From the IMG/VR virus record IMGVR_UViG_2551306674_000009: 11,334 nt of DNA. One strand, 5' to 3'. This document shows, piece after piece, positions 1 through 11,334 of the stretch. The notes under the pieces are model-generated. The model did not search any database, was not told the DNA's origin, and saw only the letters and a program-made list of their open reading frames with translations. How positions within the stretch are numbered: the first letter of the stretch is position 1; each line of letters opens with the position of its first letter. The DNA is from a virus (taxonomy: Duplodnaviria > Heunggongvirae > Uroviricota > Caudoviricetes). The position numbers and the translations under genes are program-made.

Positions 1-200
1 TGTCAGTTATCATCTTCGGTTACGGTTATCGGCAGAACGCCCTGCCGCTGACAAGAGCTTATTTGCCTGACCAATCTACTTCACATGATAGATAACTATC
101 ATTTATAACATTTCATTGATTAGCCTTTATTTTTCATTGCGTTACAAATAACAGCCCTGTCAAAAACAGCGAAATTAACTACACCATTAACTACACCGTT

Positions 201-240
201 TCACGAACAATATCGAACAACCACGAACAAAGATCAACAC
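201..240 (+). repeat. Four tandem 10-bp units (tcacgaacaa / tatcgaacaa / ccacgaacaa / agatcaacac), consensus NNACGAACAA
   Basis: Read directly; 10-bp helical phasing; same motif recurs at 9431-9460 and, inverted, at 513-526. Confidence 0.6.
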
Positions 241-330
241 GCTTTAACCGTTATCATTTTCCGGCTATCCGTTATAAAGCTGGTGGATGTTCCCCGATAT
301 GGGGATCCCCACCTACCGGAATTTTTGCCA

Positions 331-580
331 GGTTAAATGTTAACCGCTGCCCTGTTAACATTTTTACCAAAAAGGTAGTTAACATTTTTTGCACGTAACC
401 AGACGAATCATAAAGACAAAATCAACAACAACGCTTCATCAGGCAGTTAACATGTTAACTACTACGAAACGGTAATTTTTTCTCTGCGTGAGAGGGGGCG
501 CGGTGTCCAGCTTGTTCGTTGTTCGTAGCTAACCACTCCCCCCCATACCGGATTTTTTTTCCGGTTAACAGTTAATCAGG
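331..580. promoter_or_regulatory. Cluster of GTTAAC(A)-containing motifs including a perfect 16-bp palindrome AGTTAACATGTTAACT (446-461)
   Basis: At least six TGTTAAC-type motifs within 250 bp (331-345, 352-366, 378-391, 446-461, 561-577) plus hairpins ccccgatatgggg (289-301) and accgga-T8-ccggt (547-565). Confidence 0.35.
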
Positions 581-662
581 CTGGTGGGCTTTACCTGTTC
601 GGTAGGTGTTATGATTATCGTAATACCTTTCCCCCAATGGGGTAAAAGCATCAACCGTAACG

Positions 663-1080
663 GTAATCGTTATGGTTGCCTTGATGATCTGCGTGGTGAT
701 TATCATCACCCAAAATCTGGGTGTTACTCTTACTACCCAAACTACGGGTAGTTTCCGTAGTTTCATAGTCGAGTTGCAGATCTGCAACTCCCCCATCAAC
801 CACAGGCGAATTTCCGCCTTCGGTCATTCCTTAATCATCTGCGTAATCATAATGATTATTCAGCCAGCGCAATTTTGCGCTTTGCTTTAAGTTCAACCAG
901 TTACCGCCAGCTTCCCCCAATGGGGGATTGTGGAATAATCAACGGTTTAGGCCTTAATCATCTGCGTAAACATAAGTAATCATAATGATCATTCAGCCAG
1001 CTCAATTTTGAGCTTTGCTTTAAGTTCAGCGAGTTGCCGCCAGCTTCCTCAAATTGAGGTTTCCGAAAATATCAGCGGGT
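663..1080. repeat. Tandem structured repeat units (~125 bp: 829-952 and 953-1080, plus a diverged copy 663-828), each with three hairpin/palindrome modules
   Basis: Units B and C align end to end; paired substitutions keep the stems intact (agcgcaattttgcgct vs agctcaattttgagct; cccccaatggggg vs cctcaaattgagg). Unit A has its own hairpins (aaactacgg-N7-ccgtagttt; gagttgcagatctgcaactc). Confidence 0.6.
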
Positions 1081-1214
1081 TAGCGATTAAGCTGACCATT
1101 AATTAAACTGCGAAAATTTCGTAGTTTGTGACTGTCTTTCAGGCAGCTTGTTAACAGTCCTCAGAAGCGAGGGATGTAGCCACCCATTTTGGGGCCGTCG
1201 GGAATATCAACCAG

Positions 1215-1496
1215 TTACCGCCGCAACCGCTCCGGCTTCTTCCAGTGGTACGTTATTTTCTCCTTCTCCCGATACATCTCCACGCGGCGACGGTAGGCCA
1301 GCAACTCAAGAACTCTGGTTCGTATGTTGCGCATATCCACGCCATTAAGTTCTATACCATCACGGCGCATCACCTCAGCAACAACACGCGCATAGTTTTC
1401 GGCTGTCACGCTGTCCGGCTGCGTGGCCTGTTCGTCAGCCTGCTGGCTGATTCCGGCGACGCGGCGGATTAATCCCAGTAGTTCGGCTTCTGTCAT
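1215..1496 (-). CDS. Hypothetical protein (93 aa)
   Basis: ORF with GGGGG Shine-Dalgarno 4 nt before the ATG; begins immediately outside the cosQ side of the cos site at 1531. No recognisable family. Confidence 0.45.
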   Translation of the reverse strand: MTEAELLGLIRRVAGISQQADEQATQPDSVTAENYARVVAEVMRRDGIELNGVDMRNIRTRVLELLAYRRRVEMYREKEKITYHWKKPERLRR

Positions 1497-1530: not shown

Positions 1531-1735
1531 GGGTCCTTCCTGGAATTATGGCCCGTTACGGGGCGGCGACCTCGCGGATTTTATCTGTTTATGAAAATTT
1601 TCTGGCAAAAGTCAGATCCGTTCTTCTTCTCTGTAACAGATTGTTTAACAATGAAAACATTAAAAAAAGAAAGGATCTGACACGAGGCATTTTAGCCAGA
1701 AAATGCCATTATCAGATCCTTTCTCATTTTTGTTC
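1531..1735 (+). other. Lambda-type cos site (cosQ-like, cosN 1561-1572, cosB with three R-like elements)
   Basis: Exact lambda cohesive-end 12-mer GGGCGGCGACCT at 1561-1572, followed by cgcggattttatctgtttatgaaaatttt (compare lambda CGCGGGTTTTCGCTATTTATGAAAATTTT); R-like elements at 1614-1626 (+), 1667-1686 (inverted) and 1714-1725 (+), core cAGATCC(g/t)TTCT. Confidence 0.75.
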
Positions 1736-2294: not shown

Positions 2295-2423
2295 CAATAT
2301 CCCCACTTAAGTAATGTTTCAGGTTGGTGTATTGGTTTTATCTTTCCCTTTTTATTCATAGAGATAGAGCGAACAACAAAACCACCACCAGCACCCGAAA
2401 AAGGCTCATAAATAGTGAAAACG

Positions 2424-2470
2424 CGCGAGGTCGCCGCCCCGTAACGGGTCCATATGCCGGAAAGGACCCG
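2424..2470 (-). other. Second cosN-containing repeat (cosQ-like + cosN + start of cosB), inverted relative to 1531-1577
   Basis: Reverse complement of GGGCGGCGACCT at 2428-2439; on the minus strand reads cgggtcctttccggcatatggacccgttacg|GGGCGGCGACCT|CGCGCGTTTTCACTATTTATGA, closely matching the remembered lambda right-end/left-end junction. No R-like elements between it and terS. Confidence 0.7.
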
Positions 2471-2499: not shown

Positions 2500-2913
2500 T
2501 CAGATGGTTTTCAGTATGCGATCGATGTCGCCGTCATCGCCCGGGTTTCTGCCATCGTATGCCATGCCAGCTGATACGGCTTGCGGGCTGTGCATGTCCA
2601 TAAAGTTTTCAAAGGCTGCGGTAAGCTCCGGCGCAACCCTCGGACGTTCCTGCTCTATGGTCATGCTAAGGATGCTTTTAGCCGTACCAACATCGATACA
2701 AGGCACGTTTGCCATTGCACGTAACAGCGGCTGATAGTCGCCAGATTCATCAAGCGCCATAATCGCATCAGCGCGCGGCTTGTCCTGCTCTTCCAGTTTG
2801 TTAAGTTGATATATGGCCTCGTAGGTTGATAACCCTCTGTCAGCCATTGCCCGCGCTTCGGCTTTAAATTTACTCGCCAGCGGTAGCGTCATGATGCTTT
2901 CATTCGTTGCCAT
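2500..2913 (-). CDS. Hypothetical protein (137 aa), last gene of the head operon
   Basis: ORF with AGGGGG SD; sits after the gpD-like gene and before a terminator. No confident family assignment. Confidence 0.55.
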   Translation of the reverse strand: MATNESIMTLPLASKFKAEARAMADRGLSTYEAIYQLNKLEEQDKPRADAIMALDESGDYQPLLRAMANVPCIDVGTAKSILSMTIEQERPRVAPELTAAFENFMDMHSPQAVSAGMAYDGRNPGDDGDIDRILKTI

Positions 2914-2925
2914 CGTTCCCCCTGC

Positions 2926-3261
2926 TTATCGCGCCAGCGGCTGAACGGATACGCCAGAACCAGCAAAGGCGGCGCATTTTTTCGCGTCAGTGTCGGCGCT
3001 TTCAGGCCAGTTTACGGCGGCGATATTAAATATCCCCGTCTTGTAACACTGTGCTGATTTCTGCGTCGACGTGTCCACGGGGTACGAGGTCAGATAAACA
3101 GCCTTGCCAGATTCCTGACCATCCCACGCCTTAAACTCGCCATTGTCCGCCAGCATCAGCGGGGTAAATTCCTGAATAACGCCAGCATCAGCGGCAAAAT
3201 GTACCAGCGTCGTGGATACCTGCTGGCTGCCTGCAAATAACTCAATGTATGGAGTGTCCAT
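2926..3261 (-). CDS. Head decoration protein, lambda gpD-like
   Basis: 111 aa; aligns with lambda gpD (TPLMLADNGEFKAWDG vs TPLMLDTSSRKLVAWDG; KKCAAFAGSGVSV vs KRTAFAGTAISIV); GGGGG SD. Confidence 0.85.
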   Translation of the reverse strand: MDTPYIELFAGSQQVSTTLVHFAADAGVIQEFTPLMLADNGEFKAWDGQESGKAVYLTSYPVDTSTQKSAQCYKTGIFNIAAVNWPESADTDAKKCAAFAGSGVSVQPLAR

Positions 3262-3272
3262 AGAATCCCCCG

Positions 3273-4328
3273 TTAAGCAATTTTGACAGTAACAAATTTG
3301 CGAATATCTGCCGGAACCGGCTGCGGTGCGCTGTGCGTCTGCACGTACTCAATCGCCGGATCGCCGTCCTCAATCCAGTTTTTCGGGTAGTACATGTTTT
3401 GCGTTGCCTTCGTTCTTACTGCGTCCTGATCCATAATCGCACCATAGGCCACCAGCCCTTTATTGTTGGTGTTGCCCAGGACCAGCAAATCAGGTTCAAG
3501 GAAATATTTTTCTGTGCCGTCGCTGTCGGCGTATTTGCCGGAATAGACGATAAGGGCAATATCGCCCAGATAGCCTTTAAAGCTCACCACTTCGCCCAGG
3601 TTTTTACAGGCCAGTTCGGCGGCGGATTCTGAACCACGGGAAAGATCGTACAGCTCACGGAATTTTTTAAAGCTGCGTAACGTGCGCCATACCTCAGCGC
3701 CCATAATCATGACGTTTGCGGGGCAACCAGCCTGATCAGCATAAAGCTCGATGTCATAGATTGGATCGTGCATCTCTTTATCCTGCTCGGACCATTTTTT
3801 ACCCTTGGCCTGCTCTATGATGCAGTTTTCCGGTATTTTCCAGTCTATTTCATAGCGTTCTATGCCTTCGCCCTCAATAATGTTTTTTCCGGTCGTTATC
3901 GCATTCACCGCCAGCCATTCCACGCGCGCTTTAATGGCGTTTACCTGGCGGCGCATGTTGCCAGTAATCAGGCGCATACGTCGGTAGGTAGGGTCGTTAA
4001 GCTGTGCCGGATCTTCTCCAGCCATGCGCATGATGGTTTTTGTTGGATCGATTTCGTGCTTTGGCTTCATGTAGCCAGGTTTAATCGTGCTGGTTTCGTA
4101 TCCTTTATCGCGCTGTACCTGGCTGCCAACCATAGGCGAACAAAACGCCGACATGGTGACTTCTTCAATGTCCAGGGTATCCAGCATGATGTTTTGGGTG
4201 CTGAATGTCGCCACGTTCGGGAAAAACAGCGTGATAAACAGCGGACTGAATTTAAATTCCGCAATATCCCCGCGATTCAGGTACGCAAAAAGCTGGTTAG
4301 TGTTAAGTGCCGTTGCTTTGCCTGCCAT
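3273..4328 (-). CDS. Major capsid protein, lambda gpE-like
   Basis: 351 aa; conserved blocks versus lambda gpE (FKFSPLF, PGYMKPKHEIDP, DPTYRRMRLI, YPKNWIEDGDPAIEY...SAP). Confidence 0.9.
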   Translation of the reverse strand: MAGKATALNTNQLFAYLNRGDIAEFKFSPLFITLFFPNVATFSTQNIMLDTLDIEEVTMSAFCSPMVGSQVQRDKGYETSTIKPGYMKPKHEIDPTKTIMRMAGEDPAQLNDPTYRRMRLITGNMRRQVNAIKARVEWLAVNAITTGKNIIEGEGIERYEIDWKIPENCIIEQAKGKKWSEQDKEMHDPIYDIELYADQAGCPANVMIMGAEVWRTLRSFKKFRELYDLSRGSESAAELACKNLGEVVSFKGYLGDIALIVYSGKYADSDGTEKYFLEPDLLVLGNTNNKGLVAYGAIMDQDAVRTKATQNMYYPKNWIEDGDPAIEYVQTHSAPQPVPADIRKFVTVKIA

Positions 4329-5134: not shown

Positions 5135-5407
5135 TTAGCTGTCCTGGTAATTGCGCCATATTTCATCACCAGCACCATCTATACCCATTTCGGCATAAGT
5201 GCGATCGACTGCCTTTTTCAGGTCTCCGAAATTATCCGGCGGCTCCGGTGCCCTCTGTGCCTTCCTTGAACATTCCAGCCGTCGCATCGTGATGTGATGC
5301 CGTTCCTTGTCTGTCTCCACCAGCTGCATGACTTCACCCCATCGCGCCGCCGCCCTCCGGTAAAAGCCTTTCGCCTCCAGTTCCTCCGCTATGCGGTCAT
5401 GTACCAT
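5135..5407 (-). CDS. PerC-family transcriptional regulator-like protein
   Basis: Motif AEELEAKGFYRRAAARWGEVM resembles the PerC/Pch signature as I recall it; start placed at the internal ATG (MVHDRI) with a GAGGGGG SD rather than the longer ORF-track start at 5527. Confidence 0.55.
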   Translation of the reverse strand: MVHDRIAEELEAKGFYRRAAARWGEVMQLVETDKERHHITMRRLECSRKAQRAPEPPDNFGDLKKAVDRTYAEMGIDGAGDEIWRNYQDS

Positions 5408-5417
5408 CGTCACCCCC

Positions 5418-5713
5418 TCAGAACGAAATATCATCACCGTAAGGGTCATCGCCTCCCGCTGGTGGCTGATTACCCTGTGTGCCTGTGGTTTTGCGTCTGT
5501 TCCCGCCAGGACGGGCAGCACGGGCACTGATTACACTGTCTGCGATAACCTGCCAGCCCTGCCGCGTTTCGCCGTTCTGGCCTGTCCGTCCTGTGCCTGG
5601 CTGCATGGCAAAGATACCGCCATACGCGCCAGCGTCATCGGTGTGCCCTTGCTGGTCTGTTTTACCTGCGGGTCGTCCACCAGCCGCCCGTAAGCGGCTA
5701 TCTGTGCTGTCAT
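5418..5713 (-). pseudogene. SSB-like remnant spanning two reading frames
   Basis: Frame from 5713: MTAQIAAYGRLVDDPQVKQTSKGTPMTLARMAVSL (SSB N-terminus-like); a second frame ending at 5418 is Gly/Gln-rich and ends DDPYGDDISF (SSB acidic tail-like). Start overlaps the upstream stop (ATGA) and the second frame ends 10 nt before the next gene. About 98 codons in total, too short for a full OB fold. Confidence 0.35.
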
Positions 5714-5969: not shown

Positions 5970-6165
5970 ACCTCTCACTTTTTCGCCTCACTTTTTCAAG
6001 CGTCTCACTTCGTCGCAGTTGGGATTTTCGGTTTTTCTATGTGTGTGTTTCATAAGTATTTTTTTACCCCTCACTTTTGAGGATGTATACAGGTCGAAAA
6101 GTGAGGGAGAGCGGGCTAATTTTGGCCCTCTTTCTATCCCCCTCGCTTTTGCTCCTCACTTTTAT
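5970..6165. repeat. Putative replication origin: CTCACTTTT iterons flanking an AT-rich stretch
   Basis: Copies at 5974-5982, 5987-5995, 6004-6010 (degenerate), 6070-6078, 6097-6105 (inverted), 6142-6150 (degenerate), 6155-6163; AT-rich 6020-6068; immediately 3' of the rep gene. Confidence 0.65.
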
Positions 6166-7562
6166 AGCGGCGCTACATCATCCCCATCGATACGAATAAC
6201 CCCATCTTTTTCCAGCTTGTACAGCCAGCGCCGGAAGTTTTTCATTTCATACCCCAGCTTTTTCATGTCATCACGTAACAGCGGGATCGTGCACTTGTCG
6301 CCGTTCTGTGTGCGTGAACGGATGCACCCCCATAGCGCGGTATGGTTTTCCGTCTTGTTCCCTGCCTCCTCGATGCGCTCCAGTTCAACAGGAGGGCGCG
6401 GATCATCCACCACCACCAGCGACGTGATTAATTCACCGTCAGCGTCGGTAAAAAGCTCCACCACGCGTAAGTCATATGCGGCTTCTTTGAGTTCCTCCGC
6501 GTCCTTCATTTTGGTGCATGAGATAACCAGCGCTTCGCTTCCTGCGTCCTCCCTGCGTATCCGGTATTCAGCATCCAGCGAAGCACGAAATGCACTGGAA
6601 CCGCGCGCGCCTTTCGTCTCATCCTTGCCGGAATGGTGAACCACCAGCACCGTGGCCCCTGTGCGTCGTTTCAGTTCGTCACAACCACGGATAAACGCCC
6701 CCATATCACGGGAATCATTTTCATCATTCCCACCAAAGCAACGCGCCAGCGTATCCAGAATAATCATGCGTACAGGTTTACCCGTTTCCCGCTCCACCTG
6801 ACGGGCAGCGATAACCATTTCATCAACATCAAGCGGGGCAGCCGGAAAGATGGGGCGGTTTACCAGATACAGATTTTTCACCTGCTCATCGTGCACAACC
6901 TCCCAGGCTTTTACACGACGCGGAACACCTATACCGCCTTCACCAACCACATAGAGAACCGCACCATGTGCAACCCTGCGGCCTCCCCACTGGCGACCAG
7001 TGGCAACATGGCACGCCCACGATCCGGCAAGGAATGATTTATAGGACCCGCTAGCCCCGTATATGCTGCATAGCGATACCGCCGGAATAATCCCCTTAAC
7101 CACGTAATCCAGTTGCGTGTCGTATCCGGTAGATCCAACGCTCATCGGTAGCGTGGTTTTTCGCTGGTGGTTTTTTTCTTCCGCCGGCTCTTTCCCGCGC
7201 ACCCGTTCCAGGTATTCGCGCCAGTTCTCCCGCATATGGCTGTGCATCCCTTCGGGGTAATAATTCGCATCAGTTACACCCGCCGCCGCCAGCTTGTGCG
7301 CAATGGCATTAATATTTGATGGCCTGATGTGGCCTGCCTTGTACAGCCGGACACAATAGCGCCCCTCGTCGATGATTCTCAGGTCTGCCAGTTCATCCAG
7401 TTGATCATCAGCCAGCACAACGGGAGGCACATTATCGCCAGCCAGTCGCCCGTCCTGTTCCTGCCACTGTTTCGCATGTGCCCAGGCATCACTACCCGCA
7501 AAAATAATGACTTCGGTCATCTTGTCGTAAGGCTGTTTTTTTAAGTTCGGTGCGCTTTTCAT
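6162..7562 (-). CDS. Replication initiator/helicase, RepA-like (AAA_25-type RecA-fold ATPase)
   Basis: 466 aa; Walker A GASGSYKS, Walker B-like MIILDTLARCF, VLVVHHSGKD; C-terminal winged-helix-like region; ATGA overlap with the upstream ORF. Confidence 0.8.
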   Translation of the reverse strand: MKSAPNLKKQPYDKMTEVIIFAGSDAWAHAKQWQEQDGRLAGDNVPPVVLADDQLDELADLRIIDEGRYCVRLYKAGHIRPSNINAIAHKLAAAGVTDANYYPEGMHSHMRENWREYLERVRGKEPAEEKNHQRKTTLPMSVGSTGYDTQLDYVVKGIIPAVSLCSIYGASGSYKSFLAGSWACHVATGRQWGGRRVAHGAVLYVVGEGGIGVPRRVKAWEVVHDEQVKNLYLVNRPIFPAAPLDVDEMVIAARQVERETGKPVRMIILDTLARCFGGNDENDSRDMGAFIRGCDELKRRTGATVLVVHHSGKDETKGARGSSAFRASLDAEYRIRREDAGSEALVISCTKMKDAEELKEAAYDLRVVELFTDADGELITSLVVVDDPRPPVELERIEEAGNKTENHTALWGCIRSRTQNGDKCTIPLLRDDMKKLGYEMKNFRRWLYKLEKDGVIRIDGDDVAPL

Positions 7563-10095: not shown

Positions 10096-11334
10096 TCAAG
10101 AATTTTGAGAGTAAATTCGCGGGGTCATAACAACGATTTTTTCATCATTGTTCTGGAGAAGCTCGAGACGCTCAACCCATAGATTAAGAGCGTCACGTTT
10201 TGCATCGAGATAACGGGAGTGATTATAGACTCGTTGCATTCCTGGCAACTGGTGCGCGGTTAGCTGCTCCACTACATGAGGATCCACGCCTAAATCGTTC
10301 AGCATCGTTGTAAACGTGTGCCGGATGTCGTGCAACGTCCAGGGGGCTTGATTAATACGTCTGTGTGCCGTTCTTCCGTACTCTGATACGGATGATTGCC
10401 CTTTCAGTTCTCCGAGCAATAATCCCGTGTGCCTGTTCTGCTCCACCAGCTTCGTTACGAACGGCAAGATCGCTTCCGGTATTGGCCTGAATATTGCTAC
10501 CTTCGTTTTGCTGTGTTCTTTCGGCACGGTCCAGAGCATTTCTTTAAAATCCCATTCCTGGAGCTCAGAGCGTCTTAGCTCAGTGGTACGACATCCGAAG
10601 ACAATCAGGAGGCGAATCAGGGCGCTGTAGTACGGTGGGTAAATTTTTTCATCCAGGGCGCGGAGTAATTCCCCAAGCTCCTTGTTTGTTAGTACGCGCT
10701 CGCTTATTTCTGCTTTTTTCCCAACATCACCTACAACCATATCATCTAGAACGTTGGTAATTGCGTAGCGTCGTTTGCGGCAGTACTTAAGCGCCTGCTT
10801 GCATACCTGTAACAAAAATCCTGCTGATACCGGATTACGCTTAGCAAGCTGATCAAAACAGGTCAGCCAGTGGCGTAGCTCGCATTTTTCCAGCGGCATA
10901 GCACCAATCTGGCTGATTATGTGTGTATTGATCCGGCTCTTCAGAGATTCGTAGTCTGTGCGCTTTTCCTTCGCGTACGATTCAAGCCAGTAAGTGAGCG
11001 CTTCCTTAACCGTAACAGGTGATAACGCTTCCTGTACGGTGTGATTAAGCTCATGGCGTGGATTTTTCCCCTCAGCAAGCCAGGCGCGACACTGCGCCGC
11101 TTTTTCCCTGGCTGCTTTCAGGCTCAAATCAGGATAATTTCCCAGCCTCAGACGTTCAGGGGATACCTTCCTGCCTGTTCCGGCCCTGTAAGTGAAATAC
11201 CAGGTTAACAGGCCATTGGTTGAATGCCTTACGCTAAGGTTGCCACCATCATTAAAAAAGGTGTTTTTTGTGGTTGGTGATCCGCTTAATTTTCGTAAAA
11301 GAGTGTCGCTAAGTCTATGAATTGCCCTGCTCAT
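10096..11334 (-). CDS. int: Tyrosine integrase, P4-type
   Basis: 412 aa; N-terminal arm-binding-like region, C-terminal catalytic residues (HDIRHTF ... VYNHSRY). Start codon is at the last bases of the window, so the true 5' end could lie beyond the edge. Confidence 0.85.
   Translation of the reverse strand: MSRAIHRLSDTLLRKLSGSPTTKNTFFNDGGNLSVRHSTNGLLTWYFTYRAGTGRKVSPERLRLGNYPDLSLKAAREKAAQCRAWLAEGKNPRHELNHTVQEALSPVTVKEALTYWLESYAKEKRTDYESLKSRINTHIISQIGAMPLEKCELRHWLTCFDQLAKRNPVSAGFLLQVCKQALKYCRKRRYAITNVLDDMVVGDVGKKAEISERVLTNKELGELLRALDEKIYPPYYSALIRLLIVFGCRTTELRRSELQEWDFKEMLWTVPKEHSKTKVAIFRPIPEAILPFVTKLVEQNRHTGLLLGELKGQSSVSEYGRTAHRRINQAPWTLHDIRHTFTTMLNDLGVDPHVVEQLTAHQLPGMQRVYNHSRYLDAKRDALNLWVERLELLQNNDEKIVVMTPRIYSQNS

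Follow-up and report, generated by a model that had tools for sequence, protein, structure and literature searches.

The window analyzed here, a stretch of DNA of 11,334 bp, is an EcCICFT073-like phage-inducible chromosomal island (PICI) of the phoQ locus and a terS-bearing sibling of EcCICFT073. Every island gene in it lies on the minus strand: an integrase (10096-11334), a RepA-type helicase (6162-7562), PerC (5135-5527), a gpE-like major capsid protein (3273-4328), a gpD-like decoration protein (2926-3261), orf137 (2500-2913), the island terS (1752-2294), which encodes a Nu1-family small terminase of 180 aa recognized by Pfam, PHROG and hhalign profile matches, and orf93 (1215-1496), a conserved island gene of unknown function (phrog_1561) whose position is the same in EcCICFT073 and in the O55:H7 island. 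Related islands sit between phoQ and roxA in O55:H7 and O157:H7. The window is also collinear with CFT073 (L089), and both cos sites were located. EcCICFT073 itself, the prototype among Gram-negative PICIs (Fillol-Salom 2018 and 2019), occupies the same locus with the same gene order (PerC, orf68, gpE-like capsid, gpD-like decoration, orf137, cos1, packaging gene, inverted cos2 and orf93), but it has rpp as its packaging gene (annotated at 144 aa, without a TerL-binding tail) where the window has a full-length Nu1-type terS, and its cos2, identical in place and orientation, carries 21-like CATGTCC elements instead of AGATCC.

Two inverted cos sites around the island terS

Two cos sites in inverted orientation flank the Nu1-family terS. 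The first, cos1 (2310-2469, minus strand), lies upstream of the gene in the canonical order cosQ-cosN-cosB-terS. The second, cos2 (1531-1730, plus strand), comprises cosQ, a lambda-type cosN, an I2 spacer and the series R3-I1-R2-R1, in which I1 is putative, with orf93 flanking its cosQ side. Because terS runs on the minus strand, it converges on cos2: its stop codon faces R1, and gene and cosB are adjacent, 21 nt apart. A cognate same-strand terS just 3′ of cos2 R1 was looked for and is not there, the neighboring terS running in the opposite direction.

The cosB of cos2 is built on a repeated AGATCC core. With at most one mismatch allowed, CAGATCCKTTCT has exactly three matches in the whole window (0.04 expected by chance; three matches were reached in 0 of 200 dinucleotide-preserving shuffles), at 1613-1624 (+), 1668-1679 (−) and 1713-1724 (+), so that R2 is inverted relative to R3 and R1. 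The repeat arms extend to 18-19 nt, pairing 1611-1628 with 1664-1681 and 1662-1680 with 1712-1730, each pair being 89% complementary. A sequence-only reading of this DNA had pointed to three AGATCC elements in +, −, + order, which this search bears out; it had named the same elements, at positions that were off by 1-7 nt, and had mentioned neither the minus-strand orientation of terS nor cos1.

From left to right, cos2 begins with cosQ (GGGTCCT, 1531-1537, plus strand), a 7-mer that, together with its distance to cosN, is identical in all aligned lambda-like phage cos regions (cosQ as defined in PMC4669245). The cosN that follows (1561-1572, plus strand) has the lambda-type 12-nt cohesive-end sequence GGGCGGCGACCT, which lines up with position 1 of phi80 records, where the annotation is a 5′ single-stranded extension (12-nt cohesive end), and is identical to cosN of the E. 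coli prophages L005 and L006. An I2-like A+T-rich spacer (1573-1610, plus strand), which includes TTTATGAAAATTTT and is kept in all aligned lambda-like cos regions, separates cosN from the R3-type element (1611-1628, plus strand; repeat search and MAFFT alignment), whose core CAGATCCGTTCT occupies 1613-1624. This core starts 52 bases to the right of cosN, in a register equal to that of lambda-type R3, and a MAFFT alignment of lambda-type, 21-type and Gifsy-1-type phage cos regions contains zero gaps between cosN and R3. Since bp 1 of cosN is fixed both by the phi80 left-end alignment and by the phage cos alignment, the R3 core falls at bp 53-64; and since CAGATCCGTTCT aligns gap-free opposite CGTTTCCGTTCT of a lambda-type phage, the substitution of CAGATCC for CGTTTCC is real, as the earlier reading had held when it proposed a lambda-style R3/R2/R1 layout.

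Beyond R3, an I1-like match to the IHF consensus (AAACAATCTGTTA, 1634-1646, minus strand, one mismatch) falls in the alignment opposite TAACTTAATGTTT, the I1 segment of the lambda-type phage. A scan with the consensus WATCAANNNNTTR gave 10 matches in the window against 12 expected, so AAACAATCTGTTA by itself has no statistical significance and I1 of cos2 is assigned by positional homology only. Repeat and inverted-repeat searches then placed the R2-type element at 1664-1681 (minus strand, core CAGATCCTTTCT at 1668-1679) and the R1-type element at 1712-1730 (plus strand, core CAGATCCTTTCT at 1713-1724), with a small hairpin between them (GGCATTTT/AAAATGCC, 1686-1707; inverted-repeat search). 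The site shares with the lambda cosB/gpNu1 system its three R elements, a putative IHF position and the placement of R3 at bp 50-65; it differs in its core, which is CAGATCC where lambda has CGTTTCC and phage 21 has CATGTCG, and in R1, which lies about 10 bp closer to R2.

The island small terminase and its upstream cos site

Profile comparison identifies the terS product as a genuine, full-length member of the Nu1 family: phrog_57 matches residues 1-176, and hhalign against phage TerS gives a probability of 99.9% over residues 6-166. Pfam Phage_Nu1 (E 3e-23) matches residues 68-152 only, and in the alignment the wing and linker are shortened and other residues take the place of the conserved 'RT' that opens the recognition helix, which upholds the earlier claim that the N-terminal DNA-binding part has diverged. 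Where the AGATCC phage class (see below) has the helix DVRTI[TS]xW, the island protein has SATAFDKW, and it does so equally in islands with a 21-type, an mEp460-type or no cos2. A Gifsy-1-class pairing would therefore need a helper-encoded TerS in trans. An AF2 model built on a 15-sequence alignment gave the N-terminus a beta-alpha-alpha-beta-beta-alpha order (pLDDT 68-80), the single-sequence model being poor (pLDDT 55); a Foldseek search with the TerS model returned as best matches the MerR-type winged helix-turn-helix (wHTH) proteins MerR, SoxR, CueR and RacA, all non-significant at E ≥ 0.1. With moderate confidence, a remodeled wHTH is thus a plausible description of the predicted N-terminus.

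Searched by sequence against the PDB, the island TerS had no meaningful match to RppC or to the DNA-binding domain of gpNu1, and similarity to RppA was undetectable by BLASTP (E = 1.3), RppA matching the TerS profile at residues 7-47 only. An Rpp homologue (135-153 aa, wHTH, without a TerL-binding tail) was considered as the island packaging protein; the island protein instead aligns over its full length to Nu1-type TerS. Its central region is 47-66% identical to phage TerS, and its tail is similar to those that bind TerL in lambda and 21, the closest being the PhiR5_1-type TerS: the middle and C-terminal parts are 66% and 55% identical to the PhiR5_1 type (21-class), compared with 49% and 34% to the S8 type. 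Among TerL N-termini, those of S8, CFT073 prophage 4 and Gifsy-1 form one class, with PhiR5_1 and lambda-type phages outside it, and the AGATCC phages differ from the PhiR5_1 type in both TerS tail and TerL N-terminus class. These affinities hint that cos1 with the island TerS, on the one hand, and cos2, on the other, may serve different helper terminases.

Read as the reverse complement of 2295-2510, the DNA upstream of terS presents in order an intrinsic-terminator-like hairpin, cosQ, cosN, an I2-like spacer, GGTGGTGGTTTTGTTGTT, CAATACACCAACC and the start of terS, all on the minus strand. The hairpin (2477-2496) lies 3′ of orf137, just ahead of cos1; the cosQ region (GGGTCCTTTCCGG) spans 2457-2469; and cosN (GGGCGGCGACCT, 2428-2439, bp 1 = 2439) is the equivalent of that in EcCICFT073 cos1. 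Further in, GGTGGTGGTTTTGTTGTT (2372-2389, bp 51-68 of cos1) stands at the R3 position and is a candidate cognate site of the island TerS, and CAATACACCAACC (2322-2334, about bp 106-118) forms a second conserved block of the cosB, retained as CAATACACC[AC]AC in E. coli, Citrobacter and Enterobacter islands and in L181, although the DNA around it has diverged in the distant islands. An inverted-repeat scan of cos1 did not report GGTGGTGGT and ACACCAACC as a pair; since they match at only 6 of 9 positions, CAATACACCAACC is called a second conserved block and not R2.

The cos1 motif GGTGGTGGTKTTGTT is a single-copy element in all 91 island loci, located in every one upstream of terS and on its strand, and was found in none of 85 phage loci nor in EcCICFT073. 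Citrobacter and Enterobacter islands, whose TerS is 56-58% identical with the N-terminal domain as its best-conserved part, keep GGTGGTGGTKTTGTT within diverged surrounding DNA; no cos2 was found in them. One TerS of 76% identity with changes in the helix region is accompanied by a variant of the motif, GGTGGGCGTGTTGTTGTT, and by a 21-type cos2. Among islands the right half of the cos1 cosN varies while GGTGGTGGTKTTGTT stays fixed, and against EcCICFT073 the two cos1 sites are essentially identical to about bp 33, diverging where cosB and rpp or terS begin. Part of this conservation could reflect promoter or RBS constraint upstream of terS.

AGATCC cosB elements in lambdoid phages and sibling islands

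cos2 is a member of the known Gifsy-1 cosB class and the known second cos of EcCICFT073-type PICIs. Gifsy-1, a Salmonella phage whose R3-I1-R2-R1 layout has been described (PMC9026076), and related E. coli lambdoid prophages share with cos2 the core (C/T)AGATCC(G/T)TTC, the order R3(+)-I1-R2(−)-R1(+) and the cosN-R3 register. In Gifsy-1 itself the R elements are CCAGATCCGTTCT, GAAAGGATCTGC and GCAGATCCTTTC, followed by the phage's own terS and terL; its cosN is GGGCGGCAGCGT, unlike the lambda-type GGGCGGCGACCT of cos2. The prophage remnant SerU-LTIIb of E. coli has core and layout as in Gifsy-1, and in E. coli strain S8 an intact lambdoid prophage (L006) combines them with a lambda-type cosN, its terS and terL lying just downstream of cos; over 173 nt it is 82.9% identical to 1552-1724 of the window, gap-free from cosN to R1. 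The same core also occurs in 40 IMG/VR phage loci. The arrangement around cos2 is different: where phages of this class place a cognate terS and terL after cosB on the same strand, cos2 abuts the 3′ end of an opposite-strand island terS of unrelated specificity, a convergence seen neither in phages nor in the cos-rpp order of Murialdo and Feiss.

An AGATCC-type cosB is present in 652 of 5426 complete E. coli genomes, at ≥90% identity in 383 of the 652 (the island type, for example in O157:H7 and O26:H11) and at 60-90% in 269 (mostly the phage type); the S8-type cos joined to a terS 5′ end occurs in 223 E. coli genomes. These tallies come from a cosB-only search, which replaced a count by coverage of 1540-2310: the 481 genomes that cover at least 80% of that interval were dropped as a measure of AGATCC islands, as 21-type islands could reach 80% as well. 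Each O157:H7 genome with the island has only one AGATCC-type site, so a matching resident helper is often absent.

We examined covariation between small terminase and R core in 80 IMG/VR loci whose TerS is 83-100% identical to that of the S8 phage. A TerS helix of the form DVRTI[TS]xW, including DVRTITAW, accompanies AGATCC elements in 40 of 40 loci (28/28 and 12/12), and the helix DPRTIERW accompanies 21-type elements (CATGTCG or CGTGTCG) in 37 of 37 (33/33 and 4/4); one further phage locus has a single fused R element. The R-core class thus follows the recognition helix of the phage TerS in 77 of 77 loci. Because the DPRTIERW group includes a recombinant that carries the wing of the other class and yet keeps 21-type elements, it is the recognition helix that decides the R-core class. 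This covariation extends to a third class the specificity logic of the lambda/21 paradigm, in which a few R-core bases are likewise matched to the recognition helix of the wHTH (PMC4856287; PMC4669245).

The sibling islands present a different picture. Eighty were fetched, and 79 TerS sequences were parsed, that of the window included. All 79 share the same HTH and wing residues, SCRVSATAFDKWGV.PVERKGRE.FYDVASVI. The region between terS and orf93, by comparison, is of the AGATCC class in 15 islands (the window among them), of the phage-21 class in 15 and of an mEp460 type in 10 (cosN GGGCGGGAGCAT; 85-87% identity to phages mEp460 and phi458), contains no cos in 29, and lies on a contig too short to score in 10. 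Two different full-length TerS sequences each occur both with AGATCC and with 21-type sites. The clearest pair is L015 and L010, whose TerS proteins are 100% identical and whose flanks are identical (cosQ, cosN and TTTATGAAAATTTT on the left, TTTTGTTCAATAATTGCG on the right), the sole difference being a cosB segment of about 120 bp. Judged from these sequences, this segment behaves as an exchangeable cassette, with the I2-like spacer at 1573-1610 as its left boundary. CFT073 prophage 4 is the natural helper of EcCICFT073, and the 21-type cassette of island L017 is close to its cosB. Given that the DNA-binding domain of the island TerS never changes, it is not the specific reader of three unrelated cores, and the cassette follows phage classes rather than the island TerS. 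Some siblings are cos2 deletion variants in which mid-cosN is joined to the terS stop. The absence of cos2 from 29 of the 79 siblings and from the Citrobacter and Enterobacter relatives makes it dispensable.

Probable assignment of the two cos sites to terminases

From the anatomy, homology, distribution and covariation of these sites we infer which protein would bind which site and that both sites would be used. The account that we consider probable as a whole takes cos2 to be a helper-mimicking site of the Gifsy-1 class and places the action of the island TerS rather at cos1. The R elements of cos2 would most likely be read by a helper small terminase with the helix DVRTI[TS]xW, whereupon the helper TerS-TerL holoenzyme would nick cosN at 1561-1572 and package island DNA rightwards through terS; in its cos2 part, the island would be mimicking a helper signal and not using a private code. 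The island TerS, with its conserved wHTH and its lambda/21-like TerL-binding tail, more probably acts at cos1 through GGTGGTGGTKTTGTT. These assignments are drawn from covariation and position; in general terms, a private TerS/cosB pair may exist, but at cos1.

Work on EcCICFT073, the one island of this type whose mobilization and cos function have been demonstrated by experiment, provides the nearest functional reference. There, deletion of both cos sites abolishes transfer, and the cosB of cos1 is used with the island protein (PMC6092414; PMC6739421). Deletion of cos1 alone does not abolish transfer, and the authors' conclusion is that each of the two sites functions. Transfer by lambda and phi80 rose slightly once cos2 was deleted, so that cos2 may be neutral or costly with non-matching helpers. 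The specificity of lambda and phi80 does not match the 21-like cosB of EcCICFT073 cos2.

A fuller version of the same account, possible though short of an even chance, is a two-key design. The private key would be the island TerS together with GGTGGTGGTKTTGTT of cos1, recruiting a helper TerL of the lambda/21 class, and the public key would be the inverted cos2 with its swappable cassette. If so, the same island backbone could be packaged directly by any helper class that is present, with that helper's terminase left unmodified, and a cassette swap would amount to a switch of helper range, the AGATCC version opening the island to Gifsy-1-class lambdoid phages.

Among the alternatives, the one that survives best, although we regard it as unlikely, sees in cos2 a non-functional scar of past recombination with helper cos regions, with cos1 the only site that matters. 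It would account for the siblings that lack cos2, for the deletion variants, for the Citrobacter and Enterobacter islands, and for the unreduced transfer of EcCICFT073 by lambda and phi80 after loss of cos2. Several observations speak against a scar: cos2 still has an intact cosQ, cosN, cosN-R3 spacing, I1 position and set of three R elements, free of indels relative to a live prophage; where a cassette has been replaced, the R3-R1 set is complete and the boundaries are precise; and about 383 complete E. coli genomes retain the site at ≥90% identity. Moreover, EcCICFT073 transfer was lost in the double deletion and not upon deletion of cos1 alone.

Improbable to a further degree is an Rpp-like heteromer, in which the island TerS would join a helper TerS through its conserved central domain at cos2, and possibly also at cos1; the phage subunits would then read AGATCC, and those from the island would provide the contact with TerL or change it. 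The 47-66% identity of the central regions would suit such a partnership, as would the heterodimerization of the sibling island's Rpp with phage TerS (PMC6739421) and the mismatch between the island tail, nearest to the PhiR5_1 type, and the TerS tail and TerL N-terminus class of the AGATCC phages. Against this, the island TerS shows no detectable similarity to RppA (E = 1.3), and the observed covariation is explained without a heteromer.

Least probable, and very much so, is the satellite-specific pair that the sequence-only reading had proposed, in which the N-terminal domain of the island TerS reads AGATCC and brings a helper large terminase to island DNA: the protein's N-terminus is indeed far diverged from the TerS of lambda, 21 and Gifsy-1, its gene lies only 21 nt from cos2 cosB and its tail is like the TerL-binding tails of lambda and 21, but the core is a phage cosB class shared with Gifsy-1, SerU-LTIIb and an intact E. 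coli prophage and tracks the phage TerS helix in 77 of 77 loci, the DNA-binding domain is invariant over four cos2 states with an identical TerS beside either the AGATCC or the 21-type cassette, distant islands keep that domain without any cos2, and terS, on the other strand, converges on cos2 while the canonical cos-terS order, with an island-specific motif, lies upstream, on the gene's other side.

The preferred account, helper mimicry at cos2 with the island TerS at cos1, can be set beside several known systems. Murialdo and Feiss (2022) propose an element R3-PICI, ACCACCACC, at bp 55-63 of EcCICFT073 cos1. The Rpp/R3-PICI arrangement resembles that of the window in having an island wHTH protein just downstream of an island cos, a cosB unlike the helper's and an element within bp 48-65. 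Its description fits the window's cos1 (the triplet repeat GGTGGTGGT, the reverse complement of ACCACCACC, at bp 51-59) and not the AGATCC site; the window protein differs from Rpp in being a full-length TerS with a TerL-binding-type tail. In cos-type SaPIs (SaPIbov5 and SaPIbov4, the latter with two putative cos sites) and in HE-PICIs, one of which matches the cos of its helper over 258 bp at 90% identity (PMC10111431), the satellite carries the helper's cos for the helper terminase, as cos2 would. Those systems involve another phage family and another host, however, and the mimic site of the window coexists with an island terS and an island-specific cos. Fillol-Salom (2018) noted that some E. 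coli PICIs encode TerS, were not mobilized and had no helpers found; GGTGGTGGTKTTGTT in cos1 is a concrete candidate binding site for these so far uncharacterized terS-encoding Gram-negative PICIs.

The AGATCC cosB is thus not a new orthogonal terminase/cosB code, but a known phage signal copied into a PICI. Three points appear to be undescribed in the literature consulted: that islands identical elsewhere exchange cosB cassettes, that helix and core covary perfectly in a third specificity class, and that terS-encoding PICIs have a conserved motif in cos1; all are incremental and testable, and none is surprising. A small exchangeable cosB cassette would offer a way to match E. coli PICIs of the EcCICFT073 family, those of O157:H7 and O26:H11 included, to their helpers, and the covariation provides a clean natural table of which recognition helix of the small terminase goes with which R core, in a class beyond lambda and 21.

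The cassette exchange also bears on annotation. Two plus-strand ORFs that cross cos2 (1548-1772 and 1703-1870) were treated as spurious, because the segment is swapped wholesale between identical islands and its phage equivalent is a non-coding cos, and the CDS annotated as a 'NU1-like protein' over the cos2 region in KU052038 is probably an annotation artifact.

A second cos immediately upstream of terS

Besides the plus-strand cos2, the window carries a complete second cos on the minus strand (2310-2496), lying immediately 5′ of terS in the opposite orientation to cos2 and representing the counterpart of EcCICFT073 cos1. It comprises a cosQ (2457-2469, minus strand), a cosN (2428-2439, minus strand) and a conserved island-specific block, GGTGGTGGTTTTGTTGTT (2372-2389, minus strand). 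Comparison of the window cosN (2428-2439) with other islands (L050, L079, L088, L030 and L174) revealed that its right half, bp 7-12, differs among them, with CGACCT, AAGGCG, CAGACG, CTGACG and AGACCT all represented; Citrobacter has GAGGCGGCAGCGT. The adjoining cosB motif, in contrast, is unchanged across islands whose cosN right half varies, suggesting that the cosN of cos1 adapts to the helper TerL, whereas cosB stays matched to the island TerS.

One triplet repeat is common to the R3 position of three settings: EcCICFT073 cos1 (CFT073 locus L089, 2559-2660), positions 2381-2389 of the window, and locus L061, whose cos2 is of the mEp460 type. The rpp-type island, represented by EcCICFT073 cos1, carries it as ACCACCACC (bp 55-63), terS-type islands carry the reverse complement of that form, GGTGGTGGT (bp 51-59), and the mEp460-type cos carries CACCACCA (bp 51-58).

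Exchange and loss of cosB

Two IMG/VR islands (L015 and L010) encode TerS proteins that are 100% identical and have identical flanks, the sole difference being a cosB cassette of ~120 bp, AGATCC-type versus phage-21-type, in the region corresponding to window 1596-1735. A third island group has an mEp460-type cos at the cassette position. In further IMG/VR islands (L063, L065 and L072-L078), the middle of the cos2 cosN (GGGGCGGCGG) is fused to the terS stop codon and the entire cosB is lost, a deletion variant that apparently arose via GCGG microhomology. One IMG/VR phage (L117) encodes an intact TerS with the DVRTITAW recognition helix yet has just one AGATCC element, which looks like a fusion of R3 and R1 with I1 and R2 deleted; this would be a natural single-R cosB, like that of N15.

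Within the window cos2, a 14-nt inverted repeat (1597-1610 and 1691-1704; ATTTTCTGGCAAAA and TTTAGCCAGAAAAT, 93% complementary) flanks the R3-to-R2 stretch, and a small hairpin (1686-1707) lies between R2 and R1. In the record of phage SerU-LTIIb (KU052038, locus L002, 3895-4113), a CDS annotated as 'NU1-like protein' spans the cosB (R3-R2-R1) of a decayed prophage. This CDS is probably an annotation artefact, as, likewise, are the mechanical ORFs at 1548-1772 and 1703-1870 of the window.

Capsid genes and island settings

The orf137 product (2500-2913, minus strand) matches positions 494-567 of the 583 in phrog_53 (E 1.6e-8), the C-terminal part of this phage head maturation protease family, and is read as scaffold (Nu3)-like. 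The genes for orf137, the gpE-like capsid protein and the gpD-like decoration protein together look like a capsid-remodelling module.

Several sibling islands (L007, L170-L173, L177-L179 and L182) sit within prophage late genes, either beside a truncated portal gene or within a split major capsid gene, and correspond to the helper-embedded PICIs described in PMC10111431. At the left end of the window, positions 1-545 are missing from the islands of O55:H7 and O157:H7, which match the window only from 546 onwards; this stretch, lying between phoQ and the island, is variable. Window 1-1250 is covered to at least 80% in only 11 complete genomes.
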